A stretch of DNA of 41,007 nucleotides from a virus, in UHGV virus genome UHGV-0067929. One strand, 5' to 3'. The notes under the pieces are model-generated. The model saw only the letters and a list, made by a program, of their open reading frames with translations, was not told where the DNA came from and did not search any database. The position numbers were made by a program, and so were the translations under genes. This document shows, piece after piece, positions 3,551 through 34,904 of this stretch; within the stretch, counting starts at the first letter, position 1, and each line of letters starts with the position of its first letter.

Positions 3551-3630
3551 AACTTGTTACCTCGGTCTGTTACCGTTGAGGTAATAATTATGCGTATCTG
3601 GTTTGATGTCAATAGATATGAGTTAAAAAA

Positions 3631-3647
3631 ATTACCCGTTAGGTAAT
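3631..3647. promoter_or_regulatory. operator-like palindrome ATTACCCGTTAGGTAAT (early-left promoter region)
   Basis: Perfect 6-bp inverted arms, 5-bp spacer; between leftward operon start and repressor gene. Confidence 0.55.
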
Positions 3648-3703: not shown

Positions 3704-4288
3704 TTATTGTTTGTTTTTTTCGTTCTGGTTGATGACAAATTCAATGTAACTTTCGATCTTTGCCTTCTCTGTTTCAGGTAACAATGCGTAGCGCGAGCGG
3801 TCATAGTTGATAGTTGCAGGGTCATGCGGATGGATCAGTAGTTCATATCCGTGACGCCCGAATGCAGATGCAACATTCTCCAGGGTGGAAATGGAAACGC
3901 TGACCTCATTGTTTAACAGGCGGCTTATTGTCACCTGGGCGACGCCGGATGCGCGGTGAAGTTTTCCCTGAGTTGAAAGGTCGCGGCTTTCACTCATCCA
4001 GCGTTCCAGGTTGTGAGCTGCCAGCTGACCAATGTCGCTTGGGCCGACAGGCTGAAAACCTTCCTGAGAAAGCGAGCGATCGATATCAAGCCAGTTACGG
4101 GGTTTATTGGCGGCAGCTTCAATTTTTCGCGCAACCTGGTCGCCGATAACCTTCTTGCCAAGAGCCCAGCGGTTTACCAGATTTGCCTGAGTTCCAAGTT
4201 TTTCTGCCATCCGCGTCTGAACACCATTGAATTCACGGTCGATCAAGTCGTTGAGATTTTGCCTGCGGACGTCCTGGATACTTTTCAT
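3704..4288 (-). CDS. CI-like prophage repressor with two HTH regions, no peptidase S24 domain
   Basis: 194 aa; HTH-like segments MAEKLGTQANLVNRW and SGVAQVTISRLLNNEVSVSISTLENVASAF; divergent from Cro-like gene with palindromic operators between. Confidence 0.65.
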   Translation of the reverse strand: MKSIQDVRRQNLNDLIDREFNGVQTRMAEKLGTQANLVNRWALGKKVIGDQVARKIEAAANKPRNWLDIDRSLSQEGFQPVGPSDIGQLAAHNLERWMSESRDLSTQGKLHRASGVAQVTISRLLNNEVSVSISTLENVASAFGRHGYELLIHPHDPATINYDRSRYALLPETEKAKIESYIEFVINQNEKNKQ

Positions 4289-4342: not shown

Positions 4343-4359
4343 ATTACCCAACAGGTAAA
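4343..4359. promoter_or_regulatory. operator-like palindrome ATTACCCAACAGGTAAA (repressor/cro intergenic)
   Basis: Same ATTACC-N5-GGTAA pattern. Confidence 0.55.
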
Positions 4360-4381: not shown

Positions 4382-4410
4382 TTGATTTTTGTTACCTTAT
4401 GGGTGAATAT
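4382..4410 (+). promoter_or_regulatory. sigma70-like promoter for Cro-like gene
   Basis: TTGATT - 17 nt - GAATAT, 33 nt upstream of ATG 4443. Confidence 0.5.
4391..4407. promoter_or_regulatory. operator-like site GTTACCTTATGGGTGAA within spacer of cro promoter
   Basis: Imperfect copy; sits between -35 TTGATT (4382-4387) and -10 GAATAT (4405-4410). Confidence 0.5.
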
Positions 4411-4727: not shown

Positions 4728-4744
4728 CGTACCTCAAAGGTAAT
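4728..4744. promoter_or_regulatory. operator-like site CGTACCTCAAAGGTAAT
   Basis: Half-site GGTAAT intact, left arm degenerate; upstream of replication genes. Confidence 0.4.
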
Positions 4745-6673: not shown

Positions 6674-6690
6674 ATTACCTGTTGGGTAAT
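6674..6690. promoter_or_regulatory. operator-like palindrome ATTACCTGTTGGGTAAT
   Basis: Perfect arms; upstream of -35 of promoter for 6755 gene. Confidence 0.55.
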
Positions 6691-6708: not shown

Positions 6709-6737
6709 TTGATTTCGTGTCTTATGTGGTTTTTAAT
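6709..6737 (+). promoter_or_regulatory. sigma70-like promoter for nin-like operon
   Basis: TTGATT - 17 nt - TTTAAT. Confidence 0.45.
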
Positions 6738-6752
6738 TACCTCAGAGGTAAA
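6736..6752. promoter_or_regulatory. operator-like palindrome ATTACCTCAGAGGTAAA
   Basis: Overlaps -10/+1 and ends 2 nt before ATG 6755. Confidence 0.55.
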
Positions 6753-10080: not shown

Positions 10081-10097
10081 ATTACCACAACGGTAAC
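10081..10097. promoter_or_regulatory. operator-like palindrome ATTACCACAACGGTAAC upstream of terminase
   Basis: Same motif family. Confidence 0.5.
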
Positions 10098-10098
10098 T

Positions 10099-10115
10099 AT
10101 TACCACGGTGGTTAT
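10099..10115. promoter_or_regulatory. operator-like site ATTACCACGGTGGTTAT overlapping terminase small subunit start
   Basis: Left arm perfect, right arm degenerate. Confidence 0.4.
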
Positions 10116-12890: not shown

Positions 12891-12967
12891 TGGCGTGGCA
12901 TGCAGGATTCGAACCTGCGACCAACTGCTTAGAAGGCGGTTGCTCTGTCCAACTGAGCTAATGCCAC
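12891..12967 (-). tRNA. tRNA-Arg (anticodon UCU), phage-borne argU-like
   Basis: 77-nt cloverleaf read by hand: 7-bp acceptor stem GTGGCAT/ATGCCAC, D-arm TAGCTCAGTTGGACAGAGC, anticodon loop CTTCTAA, T-arm GCAGGTTCGAATCCTGC, CCA end; one C-A mismatch in anticodon stem. Confidence 0.8.
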
Positions 12968-13288: not shown

Positions 13289-13305
13289 GTTACCCGAAAG
13301 GTAAT
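13289..13305. promoter_or_regulatory. operator-like palindrome GTTACCCGAAAGGTAAT upstream of portal operon
   Basis: Same motif family. Confidence 0.5.
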
Positions 13306-30540: not shown

Positions 30541-30770
30541 AGTGATCACCTTTGTAGTTAGGTTAATCACCACTACCGACGCCAATCGGTTGGTGGTGAA
30601 CTGTGCAGGGTTGGCGTAACCGGCTACAAAGGACCCGGCGCACCTTTCGGTGCCCCCACACAGCCCACCATAGAATAGGTGCGCTTTACACATAAAAAAA
30701 CCGCTTATGCGGCATATGTGCCTCTGTAGTAATCCGGGACGCCAATCCCGGCACTGGATTTTGCCAGTGC
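30541..30770 (-). ncRNA. structured leader RNA of Bro paralogue 1 (candidate c4-like regulatory RNA)
   Basis: Reverse-complement copy of the same leader; elements at 30721-30729 (mimic), 30624-30632 (anti-SD), 30549-30557 (SD). Confidence 0.45.
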
Positions 30771-30805
30771 CCGATTACTATGGCACAAGAGGAGTGCGAT
30801 GTAAA

Positions 30806-30822
30806 TTTACCGCAAGGGTAAT
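30806..30822. promoter_or_regulatory. operator-like palindrome TTTACCGCAAGGGTAAT at Bro paralogue 1 leader promoter
   Basis: Abuts -35 TTTACA (minus strand). Confidence 0.5.
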
Positions 30823-30968: not shown

Positions 30969-31367
30969 GTGCCATTCCACGGCGCAGAACTTTATGTTGT
31001 CAATCACAACGGAGAACCGTACACCCCAATGAAACCTATCGTTGAGGGAATGGGTATGGATTGGGCTGCTCAATTTGTTAAATTAAAACAGAGATTTGTC
31101 AAAGGTATTTCGGAAATCGAAATACCTTCTGCTGGCGGTAAACAGTTAATGATATGCCTTGCCTTTCGTAAGTTTGCGGCTTGGCTTTCAAGCATTCAGC
31201 CAAACAAAGTCCGTCCTGAAATCCGCGACAAGGTAATCCAGTATCAGGAAGAGTGTGACGATGTGCTCTACGAGTACTGGACTAAAGGCCATGTGGTTAA
31301 CCCACGCAAAGCTAAAAAGGCGTTGCCGGGTAAAATAACCACTGAACAGCAGGAGGTTTACACTTAA
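30969..31367 (+). CDS. phage antirepressor-like domain protein (Ant N-terminal-type), possibly 5'-truncated
   Basis: FHGAELYVVNHNGEPYTPMKPIVEGMGMDW...RKFAAWL...QEECDDVLYEYW; only a GTG start with no SD, no in-frame ATG upstream. Confidence 0.4.
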   Translation: MPFHGAELYVVNHNGEPYTPMKPIVEGMGMDWAAQFVKLKQRFVKGISEIEIPSAGGKQLMICLAFRKFAAWLSSIQPNKVRPEIRDKVIQYQEECDDVLYEYWTKGHVVNPRKAKKALPGKITTEQQEVYT

Positions 31368-31391: not shown

Positions 31392-31408
31392 ATTACCTTA
31401 AAGGTAAT
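31392..31408. promoter_or_regulatory. operator-like palindrome ATTACCTTAAAGGTAAT
   Basis: Perfect arms. Confidence 0.55.
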
Positions 31409-31484: not shown

Positions 31485-31501
31485 ATTACCTTTACGGTAA
31501 A
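31485..31501. promoter_or_regulatory. operator-like palindrome ATTACCTTTACGGTAAA at Bro paralogue 2 leader promoter
   Basis: Abuts -35 TTTACA at 31502-31507. Confidence 0.55.
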
Positions 31502-31530
31502 TTTACATCGCACTCCTCTTGTGCCATAGT
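31502..31530 (+). promoter_or_regulatory. sigma70-like promoter of Bro paralogue 2 leader
   Basis: TTTACA - 17 nt - (TGc)CATAGT extended -10. Confidence 0.45.
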
Positions 31531-31536
31531 AATCGG

Positions 31537-31766
31537 GCACTGGCAAAATCCAGTGCCGGGATTGGCGTCCCGGATTACTACAGAGGCACATATGCCGCAT
31601 AAGCGGTTTTTTTATGTGTAAAGCGCACCTATTCTATGGTGGGCTGTGTGGGGGCACCGAAAGGTGCGCCGGGTCCTTTGTAGCCGGTAAGACCAACTCT
31701 GCACAGTTCACCACCATCTGATTGGTCTCAGCGGTGGTGATTAACCTAACTACAAAGGTGATCGCC
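31537..31766 (+). ncRNA. structured leader RNA of Bro paralogue 2 (candidate c4-like regulatory RNA)
   Basis: From predicted TSS: two GC hairpins (31536-31573), SD mimic CTACAGAGG (31578-31586), hairpin+U7 (31594-31613), GAAA-capped hairpin (31654-31667), anti-SD CCTTTGTAG in a loop (31675-31683), 8-bp hairpin (31708-31740), SD CTACAAAGG (31750-31758). Confidence 0.45.
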
Positions 31767-32529: not shown

Positions 32530-32546
32530 ATTACCTTACGGGTGAT
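32530..32546. promoter_or_regulatory. operator-like site ATTACCTTACGGGTGAT
   Basis: Upstream of leader peptide/membrane protein unit. Confidence 0.45.
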
Positions 32547-32674: not shown

Positions 32675-33214
32675 GTGTTAAGTGAAGAAATGCAATTTGC
32701 CATGGCTGTGGCTCAAATCGTAAGTGCAGTCGCGGTTTCGCTTGGCTTGTTCATAGCTATCGCTACTATTATTTATAATGTAAATACAGCGAGAAAAGTA
32801 CACACTTCAGTATTCCTTGGTGAAAGCAGGTTTGATGTAGATTATAAGAAAGGCCTATCTACTATGCGCCGCATTCACGAGTCGAACAAATCATTCCGCT
32901 CTTATATGTATCCAAGCAATGGGCAGGCTGATCTTACGGATGAAGAAAAGATAGAGAAGAGAGAAATAATTTACTGTCTAGGTTTCTACGAACGCATGGC
33001 TGTGAGCGTGAAGCGGAAAACTTATGATGAGACCATGATTAAGGAAGTATTTTACAGCTCCGTTGTAAATAACTATCAGATTGCGCTACCTCTTATACAA
33101 GCTATTAGAGAAAAAGAAAACATAAACACATATTTTAAAGAATATGAATGGTTGGCCACACGATGGAAGGATTGTCCATTGAAGGATAAATCCCCGTGGT
33201 ACAAGTTTTGGTAA
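32675..33214 (+). CDS. membrane-anchored protein of unknown function (AT-rich moron)
   Basis: N-terminal hydrophobic helix (AMAVAQIVSAVAVSLGLFIAIATIIY) then ~140-aa soluble domain; markedly AT-rich coding region; followed by terminator. Confidence 0.6.
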   Translation: MLSEEMQFAMAVAQIVSAVAVSLGLFIAIATIIYNVNTARKVHTSVFLGESRFDVDYKKGLSTMRRIHESNKSFRSYMYPSNGQADLTDEEKIEKREIIYCLGFYERMAVSVKRKTYDETMIKEVFYSSVVNNYQIALPLIQAIREKENINTYFKEYEWLATRWKDCPLKDKSPWYKFW

Positions 33215-33236
33215 GCCCGCAGCGCGGGCTTTTTTG
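33215..33236 (+). terminator. intrinsic terminator after membrane protein gene
   Basis: GCCCGC..GCGGGC then TTTTTTG. Confidence 0.6.
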
Positions 33237-34021: not shown

Positions 34022-34238
34022 AGATGATGATCGATTCTTGCTCACCGCCAGGGGTGTCGGTTGAAGCGACGCCCTTCTCATCATCATCAAGTTTTCGAAC
34101 AGCATCTCGATGGTTTGCTATGCCTATAGCCCGACAAACATCTGAAGCGATAAACCATGGCTCACCATTAATGACGATTACTCGTATATCGCCTTGGGAT
34201 TCGAAAGAAAAAATGGACGTGCTTTTTGTAGCTGTCAT
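33543..34238 (-). CDS. Bro-N domain antirepressor-like protein, paralogue 3
   Basis: MTATKSTSIFSFESQGDIRVIVINGEPWFIASDV; SD CTAAAAGG; constant C-terminal module. Confidence 0.75.
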   Translation of the reverse strand: MTATKSTSIFSFESQGDIRVIVINGEPWFIASDVCRAIGIANHRDAVRKLDDDEKGVASTDTPGGEQESIIISESGLYTLILRCRDAVTPGTIPYRFRKWVTGEVLPQIRRTGSYIKNSLPQEERIKMVADQVANATASAVMQAMKIENKTYSAPLKPGYRSLIHSPSGVLGLTENSLLMNLLNQLQDDGHDVSGAAAELTTMFCYIVGVSKCLRDIQTHAEYINDKAGFF

Positions 34239-34468
34239 AGTGGTTACCTTTTAGTCTGGTTAATCACCACTACCGACGCCAATCGGTTGGTGGTGAACTG
34301 TGCAGGGTTGGCGTAACCGGCTAAAAGGACCCGGCGCACCTTTCGGTGCCCCCACACAGCCCACCATAATACGAATGTGGCCGTGCTATACGCATAAAAA
34401 AACCGCTTGCGCGGTGAATGCGCCTTTTAGTAATCCGGGACGCCAATCCCGGCACTGGATTTTGCCAG
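34239..34468 (-). ncRNA. structured leader RNA of Bro paralogue 3 (candidate c4-like regulatory RNA, variant specificity)
   Basis: Same architecture; elements at 34423-34430 (mimic CTAAAAGG), 34321-34328 (anti-SD CCTTTTAG), 34247-34254 (SD CTAAAAGG), all changed in concert. Confidence 0.45.
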
Positions 34469-34506
34469 TGCCTGATTACTATGGCACAAGAGGAGTGCGA
34501 TGTAAA

Positions 34507-34523
34507 TTTACCGCAAAGGTAAA
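34507..34523. promoter_or_regulatory. operator-like palindrome TTTACCGCAAAGGTAAA at Bro paralogue 3 leader promoter
   Basis: Same position relative to leader as 30806 and 31485 copies. Confidence 0.5.
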
Positions 34524-34553
34524 TATAAGCACTCCGCTTGGTAATTGCAAACC

Positions 34554-34826
34554 TTATCTGGTTTGCTTTCGTAATTGTTCGGCACAATAGTCGAGATGTG
34601 TTTGCAGATCCTGCATAGACATCTGTGAGCTGGTGACGTAGTTAATCAGTGCAGTCAGTTCGGCAAGTGGGCCATCGACATTAAATCCATCCTTATCGAG
34701 ATCCCGGAGTAATTTCATCAAGTGCGATCCCTCCACCAGTGACCTGACGCCTCCCGGCGTGTGAATCCTTTCGGTAAATCCGTCTTCCAGTGGATAGTGA
34801 TACTGCTGCATCTTAATCTTCTCCAT
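34554..34826 (-). CDS. stand-alone homologue of the Bro paralogue C-terminal module
   Basis: 90 aa; RIHTPGGVRSLVEGSHLMKLLRDLDKDGFNVDGPLAELTAL...DLQTHLDY aligns with LIHSPSGVLGLTENSLLMNLLNQLQDDGHDVSGAAAELTTM...DIQTHAEY. Confidence 0.5.
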   Translation of the reverse strand: MEKIKMQQYHYPLEDGFTERIHTPGGVRSLVEGSHLMKLLRDLDKDGFNVDGPLAELTALINYVTSSQMSMQDLQTHLDYCAEQLRKQTR

Positions 34827-34887
34827 GCAATAACTGTATATTTATACAGTAGCAAATAATTTGTTTGCTATCCAGCACGTTTTGCAA

Positions 34888-34904
34888 ATTACCTGAAAGG
34901 TAAT
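34888..34904. promoter_or_regulatory. operator-like palindrome ATTACCTGAAAGGTAAT between C-module gene and tailspike
   Basis: Perfect arms in divergent promoter region. Confidence 0.55.

Follow-up and report, generated by a model that had tools for sequence, protein, structure and literature searches.

C4 antisense RNA is the classic example of RNA-based specificity in phage immunity and is known mainly from the P1/P7 pair. In the viral genome UHGV-0067929, a stretch of 41,007 nt analysed as a whole and referred to below as the window, we studied the 5' leader (34239-34530, minus strand) of a gene encoding a 231-aa Bro-N protein, together with two paralogous leaders; the three units are called par1, par2 and par3, the last being the leader just named. 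With a probability of about three in four, the window is a phiV10/epsilon15-like prophage carrying three IsrK-C4-ant cassettes of the P1 immI type.

In the GenBank record of P1 the elements a1, b1, c4, a2 and b2 are annotated in that order, with b2 placed before icd, and P1 and P7 are distinguished by compensated 2-nt changes at all six sites; C4 and its targets reportedly need to differ by no more than 4 nt for cross-reaction between the two phages to cease (PMC5320573). In Gifsy-1, isrK and C4 lie with the same spacing as in the window before an antirepressor-like gene (anrP), b2 abuts the Shine-Dalgarno (SD) sequence, and a1 and its C4 counterpart a' (TTGGCGT / ACGCCAA) are identical to those of par1 and par3. 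Gifsy-1 differs in its b triad, which is of the TCACCG type, and in having a single cassette, located beside a Q antiterminator gene; its published model invokes a 45-codon upstream open reading frame (uORF) and mRNA conformers, not a C4-type repressor. The same type of cassette (isrK, C4, Bro-N gene) is found in the APSE phages, where c4 and isrK lie upstream of a BRO-N gene and a'/b' match the region upstream of the BRO gene (PMC7313666), but there one cassette per phage is reported, and neither an allelic series nor co-resident paralogues are described. Many C4 homologues that differ mainly in their recognition loops also occur within one genome as the C4-like small RNAs of A. baumannii; those copies are scattered over the chromosome, whereas each copy in the window is accompanied by a matched decoy and target before a paralogous antirepressor gene (PMC5320573).

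Three C4-type cassettes before Bro-N genes

All three leaders were recognized by the Rfam models C4 (RF01695; 79.5, 74.0 and 77.7 bits for par1, par2 and par3, respectively, all above the gathering threshold (GA) of 45) and isrK (RF01394; 76.8, 76.8 and 77.9 bits, all above the GA of 50). In a permissive search the c4-a1b1 model (RF03163) covered the 5' half of each isrK match with 45.1, 45.1 and 43.6 bits, just under its GA of 46.7 (E-value ~1e-9). In the minimum free energy folds of the three C4 RNAs, whose z-scores range from -3.8 to -4.6, a GAAA hairpin and the b' hairpin (loop of 10-11 nt) lie within an outer stem of 17 bp and are followed by the 8-nt a' junction; the sequences also show the conserved 5' junction AU/GG and an ACCA that follows the outer stem. 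The IsrK-like RNAs fold with a1 in the loop of the second hairpin and b1 single-stranded directly 5' of an intrinsic terminator, and each unit has a predicted promoter-like site and a predicted terminator hairpin that carries a U7 tract.

Perfect complements are present in all three units between a' and a2 (7 nt) and between b' and b2 (8-9 nt), with b2 including the AAGG of the SD sequence and ending 8 nt before the ATG. Both a1 and b1 match the C4 RNA of their own unit in par1 and par3; in par2 b1 matches, and a1 offers only a 4-nt complement. The layout a1-b1-terminator-C4-a2-b2(SD) is that of P1 immI, and the system is therefore of a known type. The original prediction had drawn on P1 versus P7 c4 heteroimmunity as an analogy, and the Rfam C4 and isrK matches at three leaders, the same annotated layout in P1 and the compensated P1/P7 changes turn this into homology. 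The likeness to P1/P7 immI extends to the C4 fold, the position of b2 at the ribosome-binding site, the location of a1 and b1 in an upstream leader with a terminator-like hairpin, a repressor operator beside tandem promoters, and shifts of specificity that arise when all three copies of an element change in a compensating way. The differences are that P1 has an icd-like gene, whereas b2 in the window is the SD sequence of the Bro-N ant gene itself; that the Ant of the window is a Bro-N protein, unlike Ant1/2 of P1; that the window has three cassettes in an integrated podovirus-type prophage and P1 one cassette in a plasmid prophage; and that the alleles in the window differ in one element at a time, whereas P1 and P7 differ in both. 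No icd-like intervening gene was found between b2/SD and the start of the Bro-N open reading frame (ORF) in any of the three leaders, this gene being a trait specific to P1 and not one that defines the family.

Compensated changes in two recognition elements

The original prediction had claimed that par3 differs from par1 and par2 by three mutually compensating changes, in the SD mimic (b1), in the loop that pairs with it (b') and in the SD sequence itself (b2). Alignment of the leaders in transcript orientation showed that these changes are real, that each of them is the same 1-nt deletion relative to par1 and par2, and that the positions assigned to them (34423-34430, 34321-34328 and 34247-34254) are exact. 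The b triad of par1 and par2 (class I) consists of CTACAGAGG at b1, CCTTTGTAG at b' and CTACAAAGG at b2, and that of par3 (class II) of CTAAAAGG, CCTTTTAG and CTAAAAGG. The remainder of the leader had been described as nearly identical, which is correct for the 113 aligned columns spanning the whole C4 and the a2 hairpin, where par1 and par3 differ solely by the b' deletion, but overstated for the leader overall: from operator to ATG, par1 and par3 are 89.3% identical (par1 and par2, 94.7%), with 24 of the 31 par1-par3 differences clustered in b1, the terminator hairpin and the spacer.

A short ORF begins in each unit at the AUG of the C4 5' end (par1, 30671-30624, minus strand; par2, 31636-31683, plus strand; par3, 34367-34260, minus strand). 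It comprises 15 codons in par1 and par2, with the UAG stop within the b' loop, and 35 codons in par3, where it is longer because the 1-nt b' deletion removes this stop. In about half of 112 leader types this ORF runs on beyond the start codon that lies downstream.

Besides the b triad there is a second recognition element, with a' ACGCCAA and a2 TTGGCGT in par1 and par3 and a' AGACCAA and a2 TTGGTCT in par2, so that the address combinations are aI/bI (par1), aII/bI (par2) and aI/bII (par3). Only par2 and par3 differ in both elements; par1 shares b with par2 and a with par3. Distinct specificities exist, as had been proposed, but they are three address combinations built from two elements and not two classes. 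The description of par1 as a mosaic holds in that a class I b triad is combined with par3-like flanking sequences, which are the a1/a'/a2 element; the internally inconsistent unit is par2. Its a1 (TTGGCGT) offers its own a' (AGACCAA) a 4-nt complement, the lowest among 209 units tested, and par2-type units elsewhere carry TTGGTCT as a1. Over 201 columns that include a1 and b', par2 is 100% identical to par1, and it differs from the par2-type unit of the E. coli UTME-9 prophage only at two a1 bases, by one extra T in b' and at one operator-spacer base. The simplest reading of these sequences is that the par2 a1 would be a conversion tract from the inverted par1 copy. Because UTME-9 combines a par1-type unit with a par2-type unit that is intact, two co-resident units differing only in a are not unique to the window.

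A survey of homologous units was assembled from two pattern scans of viral contigs, one of bacterial genomes, and named phages and prophages (P1, P7, Gifsy-1, phiV10, TL-2011b, HEMP4, Phi05_2388 and one E. coli prophage). The bacterial-contig scan returned mostly chance matches, with a true C4 in 39 of 120 loci; in total the C4 profile located 287 units, of which the 273 with full flanks were used. True C4 units with the same triads were found in Pseudomonas, Aeromonas, Kluyvera and Thiopseudomonas genomes. Further triad variants, which the original prediction had suggested seeking in related prophages, amount to ~95 distinct b' loops and ~43 distinct a' junctions, and the b' loop shows the highest column entropy (1.48 bits). 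An exact complement of at least 7 nt was present at a2 in 260, at a1 in 252, at b2 in 241 and at b1 in 187 of the 273 units (G-U pairs being frequent at b1), compared with 3-6% of non-cognate pairs at each site; in a smaller test set, a1 had such a complement in 198 of 209 units. For 55 distinct b' loops, each with one representative, the mean cognate duplex energy was -13.1 kcal/mol at b2 and -12.3 at b1, versus -7.6 and -8.2 kcal/mol for non-cognate duplexes, a gap of about 4-5.5 kcal/mol, and the cognate means were reached by none of 5000 permutations. Class I loops were accompanied by CTACA[AG][AG]GG and CTACAAAGG in 30 of 30 cases and class II loops by CTAAAAGG at both sites in 15 of 15, with no mixing of the classes (0/45) and with class II triads seen on several a-element backgrounds. 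Chance or hitch-hiking behind the triad is ruled out by the permutation tests and by this perfect association. As the three sites co-vary with one another across homologous leaders and do not vary independently, the pairing is taken as functional, in agreement with what had been argued from the three leaders.

Specificity and mode of action

In the mechanism that we propose, an operator-flanked promoter would give rise to an ~77-nt IsrK-like RNA ending in an intrinsic terminator and, by read-through, to an ~79-nt C4 RNA followed by a2, b2/SD and ant. By homology with P1 c4, the C4 RNA would pair through a'-a2 and b'-b2 and block ribosome binding to the ant mRNA. The IsrK-like RNA would present a1, within a hairpin loop, and b1, in single-stranded form, as mimics of the two targets and, as the Gifsy-1 IsrK experiments suggest, may pair with both C4 elements and counteract the block. 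The differences between the units would be natural specificity alleles (the 1-nt-shorter b triad of par3 and the 2-nt-different a'/a2 pair of par2), presumably taken from a highly polymorphic pool and recombined through the exchange of cassettes and through gene conversion. Because they would be alleles of a two-element address, each of the three C4 RNAs is expected to prefer its own mRNA, with discrimination predicted to be partial for par1-par2 and par1-par3.

Site-restricted duplex energies were -12.0 (class I) and -8.6 (class II) for cognate and -4.8 for cross pairs at b, and -10.3 and -9.2 for cognate and -3.4 to -4.9 for cross pairs at a. With the whole 5' untranslated region as target, cross-minus-cognate discrimination in the window was predicted at 2.0-9.5 kcal/mol. 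Other contigs provided 64 ordered co-resident pairs with a median of 8.3, and the window falls in their lower half; its discrimination is modest because par1 has one element in common with each of the other two units. The survey contained 23 multi-unit loci with up to four units in tandem. Among their 32 co-resident pairs one shares b' (par1/par2 of the window), eight share a' (random-pair expectation, 0.20 per pair) and none shares both. Co-resident units are effectively different, and the sharing rates do not demonstrate selection for difference; selection against shared specificity among co-resident units is not supported, the sharing matching random draws from the allele pool. Two other viral contigs (L055, 2352-4908; L160, 9710-11022) carry three or four tandem C4 cassettes in which every b' loop is different; their spacing is ~650-860 bp, and the intervening genes must therefore be very short.

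These figures bear on the original prediction that each RNA gates only its cognate antirepressor. In full, that model would have the C4 RNAs truly orthogonal, kept so by selection within the prophage, and the antirepressor paralogues gated independently. Cognate duplexes are indeed stronger than cross duplexes at every differing element, par2 and par3 differ in both elements like P1 and P7, no co-resident pair shares a complete address, and the divergent Bro-N domains on an identical C-terminal half suggest different partners. However, b' and b2 are identical in par1 and par2, so the par1 C4 can fully cover the par2 SD sequence; par1 and par3 have a in common; discrimination is below the co-resident median; b'/a' sharing follows random expectation; and promoter and operator do not differ between the three units, which makes joint transcription probable. 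Orthogonality of the three units is plausible as such, exclusive gating is not supported by the energies and shared elements, and we regard the full model as unlikely.

Published experiments on the Gifsy-1 homologue bear both on the pairing and on whether it acts in cis or in trans. The 'orf45'/STnc1160 region of Gifsy-1 is a full-score Rfam C4 RNA (locus L347, 34131-34329, minus strand), and the published mutations, numbered from the IsrK start, map to its recognition elements: IsrK G28A and G31A lie in a1 (UUGGCGU), and orf45 C162U and C159U in a' (ACGCCAA). Translation of anrP, at 4 units without the a' mutations, reaches 484-926 units with them; repression returns in part when a1 carries the compensatory changes, and IsrK supplied in trans activates anrP translation 139-fold (PMC4825925). 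Trans-activation of ant translation and Hfq binding are known for Gifsy-1 only (PMC4825925). We infer that these data would fit a C4-type repressor with IsrK as a competing decoy equally well. According to a model that acts only in cis, the pairings would instead shape leader mRNA conformers together with a uORF starting at the C4 AUG, as in the 'orf45' model, and covariation would keep intramolecular helices, making specificity between units irrelevant. In Gifsy-1, orf45 starts (A107) at the AUG of the C4 5' end, all three units of the window have an ORF beginning there, and a cis component is supported by the published data on conformers and on the uORF (PMC4825925). Against this model, the uORF differs in length between par3 and the other two units and has no consistent end point across the 112 leader types, for which reason it was rejected as a conserved feature; IsrK acts in trans in Gifsy-1 (PMC4825925); and literature cited in PMC5320573 describes P1 c4 as an immunity factor that acts in trans. 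A purely structural constraint also leaves unexplained why variation is greatest in the recognition loops when the backbone is otherwise identical, as seen in the entropy of b' and in the 113 columns in which par1 and par3 differ at b' only. We consider an exclusively cis-acting arrangement quite unlikely.

Similarly improbable is a model in which C4 pairing with a1/b1 promotes premature termination at the IsrK terminator, as with P4 CI and N15 CA RNA. It draws on the description of IsrK-C4 as a structural homologue of P4 seqA/CI (PMC3632133; PMC4825925), and b1 lies directly 5' of the terminator hairpin in the three units. As in P4 seqA-CI-seqC and N15 CA, a small RNA processed from the leader would pair with complementary sites on either side of it; P4 and N15 use such pairing to terminate transcription, whereas the downstream site of the window is the SD sequence. 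The overlap of b2 with the SD sequence in the three units and in most homologues, as in P1 with its annotated translational repression, and the larger translational than transcriptional effect in Gifsy-1 (139-fold versus 8-fold; PMC4825925) argue against termination as the mode of action, although the two mechanisms are not mutually exclusive.

The reading of the window as a set of P1-type cassettes, with a C4 RNA that would block translation and an IsrK-like decoy that would relieve the block, has its own difficulties. For this prophage, cleavage by RNase P, regulation in trans and an effect on translation rather than on termination are inferred. The mismatch of the par2 a1 means either that the a1 contact is dispensable or that the par2 unit is partly broken, and in Gifsy-1 the a1 mutation G28A raised basal translation in cis, which a simple decoy model does not predict (PMC4825925). 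The class I/II difference amounts to a single bulge, with a discrimination of 3.8-4.8 kcal/mol when off-site pairing is allowed, and the sharing of b' in one of 32 co-resident pairs is about the random expectation (0.041 per pair). An extension of the P1-type reading to a combinatorial a x b RNA address code, with three separately gated antirepressors, a par2 decoy that would titrate the C4 of other units rather than its own, and an allele pool under diversifying selection for heteroimmunity between co-infecting prophages, is in our view unlikely.

Prophage setting and significance

The whole window is most like phiV10, TL-2011b and other epsilon15-like (Uetakevirus) E. coli phages. The isolated relatives phiV10, TL-2011b, HEMP4 and Phi05_2388 have one cassette each and the UTME-9 prophage two; the b triad is of class II in phiV10, TL-2011b and Phi05_2388 and CTAAGTGG in HEMP4. 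As these relatives are single-unit phages and the only unit of phiV10 sits at the par3 position, par1, par2 and a DUF4760 gene look like additions. The exact divergent par1/par2 arrangement of the window was found in none of 5,426 complete E. coli genomes at a coverage of at least 80%. The C-terminal halves of the three Ant proteins (~130 residues) are 100% identical apart from one substitution, and their N-terminal Bro-N domains are ~50-60% identical; together with the near-identical leaders this suggests a backbone that would have been homogenised while the Bro-N domain and the RNA address were kept variable. Coordinates of the cassettes are collected in Table 1.

Table 1. Positions of the cassette elements, antirepressor-like genes and operator-like palindromes in the window.
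Feature	Position	Strand	Evidence
par3 Bro-N antirepressor-like gene, 231 aa	33543..34238	-	Pfam Bro-N 2.3e-21; PHROG anti-repressor Ant 1.1e-62
par3 b2 CTAAAAGG, overlaps ant SD, 8 nt before ATG at 34238	34247..34254	-	alignment
par3 a2 TTGGCGT, hairpin loop just 3' of C4	34276..34282	-	alignment
par3 C4 antisense RNA	34286..34371	-	Rfam C4 77.7 bits (GA 45); fold z = -4.3
par3 a' ACGCCAA, single-stranded C4 junction	34308..34314	-	fold
par3 b' CCTTTTAG, 10-nt loop of C4 hairpin 2	34321..34328	-	alignment, fold
par3 IsrK-like / c4-a1b1 leader RNA, Rho-independent terminator 34396-34415	34396..34471	-	Rfam isrK 77.9 bits (GA 50); c4-a1b1 43.6 bits (GA 46.7); fold
par3 b1 CTAAAAGG, single-stranded SD mimic	34423..34430	-	alignment, fold
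par3 a1 TTGGCGT, loop of second IsrK hairpin	34440..34446	-	complementary to a' ACGCCAA; fold
par3 predicted sigma-70 promoter TTTACA-17-CATAGT, TG-extended -10	34478..34506	-	promoter prediction; start fits isrK model position 1
par3 operator-like palindrome TTACC-N5-GGTAA, abuts -35	34508..34522		motif scan
par1 Bro-N antirepressor-like gene, 228 aa	29854..30540	-	Pfam/PHROG Bro-N, Ant
par1 targets: a2 TTGGCGT 30579-30585, b2/SD CTACAAAGG 30549-30557	30549..30585	-	alignment
par1 C4 RNA: b' CCTTTGTAG 30624-30632, a' ACGCCAA 30611-30617	30589..30675	-	Rfam C4 79.5 bits; fold
par1 IsrK-like RNA: a1 30739-30745, b1 CTACAGAGG 30721-30729, terminator 30694-30713	30694..30770	-	Rfam, fold
par1 operator 30807-30821; promoter 30777-30805	30777..30821	-	motif scan, promoter prediction
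par2 operator 31486-31500; promoter 31502-31530	31486..31530	+	motif scan, promoter prediction
par2 IsrK-like RNA: a1 TTGGCGT 31562-31568 (mismatches own a'), b1 CTACAGAGG 31578-31586, terminator 31594-31613	31537..31613	+	Rfam
par2 C4 RNA: b' CCTTTGTAG 31675-31683, a' AGACCAA 31690-31696	31632..31718	+	Rfam C4 74.0 bits; fold
par2 targets: a2 TTGGTCT 31722-31728, b2/SD CTACAAAGG 31750-31758	31722..31758	+	alignment
par2 Bro-N antirepressor-like gene, 230 aa	31767..32459	+	Pfam/PHROG Bro-N, Ant
TTACC-N5-GGTAA sites	3570-3584, 3632-3646, 4344-4358, 4392-4406, 4729-4743, 6675-6689, 6737-6751, 10082-10096, 10100-10114, 13290-13304, 30807-30821, 31393-31407, 31486-31500, 32531-32545, 34508-34522, 34889-34903		motif scan

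The three leader promoters are identical. The palindrome TTACC-N5-GGTAA, allowing at most one mismatch, occurs 16 times in the window against 0.85 expected, with sites beside the -35 of the three ant-leader promoters and between a gene for a helix-turn-helix (HTH) repressor-like protein (3704-4288) and its divergent neighbour, in the cI/cro intergenic region. The palindrome is probably a dispersed operator of the prophage repressor, an arrangement that recalls P1, with its C1 operator at the c4 promoters and scattered C1 operators. No LexA box was found at the three leader promoters, the sole perfect box near the region lying at 34834-34849, and LexA control of these promoters was rejected accordingly.

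The perfect LexA box (CTGTATATTTATACAG) is located just upstream of a 90-aa ORF (34554-34826, minus strand; phrog_450), which immediately precedes the par3 leader in the same orientation, occupies the position of phiV10 p24 and epsilon15 p19, and is 42% identical to the shared Ant C-terminal domain. Because of this box and because the repressor-like protein of 3704-4288 has an HTH and no S24 peptidase domain was seen in it, the 90-aa protein is a candidate antirepressor under SOS control, with a transcript that may continue into the par3 cassette. A 132-aa ORF (30969-31367, plus strand) in the interval separating the divergent promoters of par1 and par2 contains only the N-terminal P22_AR_N domain (PHROG profile positions 13-136 of 317) and is not preceded by a C4 leader; its UTME-9 counterpart is annotated as a pseudogene, and the 132-aa ORF is probably what is left of a fourth antirepressor gene of a different kind. 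The DUF4760 gene (phrog_2284; 32675-33214, plus strand), which has its own strong terminator (33213-33231), is placed between the par2 and par3 cassettes; a YafO-family toxin gene occupies this position in relatives, and the position looks like a cargo ('moron') slot. A tRNA-Arg gene (anticodon TCT) is found elsewhere within the prophage (12891-12967, minus strand).

The C4 RNA, its a and b sites, the P1/P7 rule, IsrK-C4 pairing, the presence of c4 and isrK before BRO-N genes and multi-copy C4 variants in one genome are already known. What is new is the detail of three cassettes with combinatorial addresses in one prophage, a modest twist that leaves the P1/P7 paradigm unchanged; in the open-access literature we found no account of several cassettes with different addresses before paralogous antirepressors in one prophage, nor of the size of the allele pool. 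For the C4 family, dozens of alleles from enterobacterial, Aeromonas and Pseudomonas prophages show the three-site compensation, and several cassettes can stack in one prophage. The minimal natural variants change one element only, by a 1-nt bulge in b or by 2 nt in a, and such near-isogenic alleles are ready material for gauging the mismatch tolerance of a two-contact antisense RNA and allow the Gifsy-1 IsrK results to be tested as a competition between decoy and C4.

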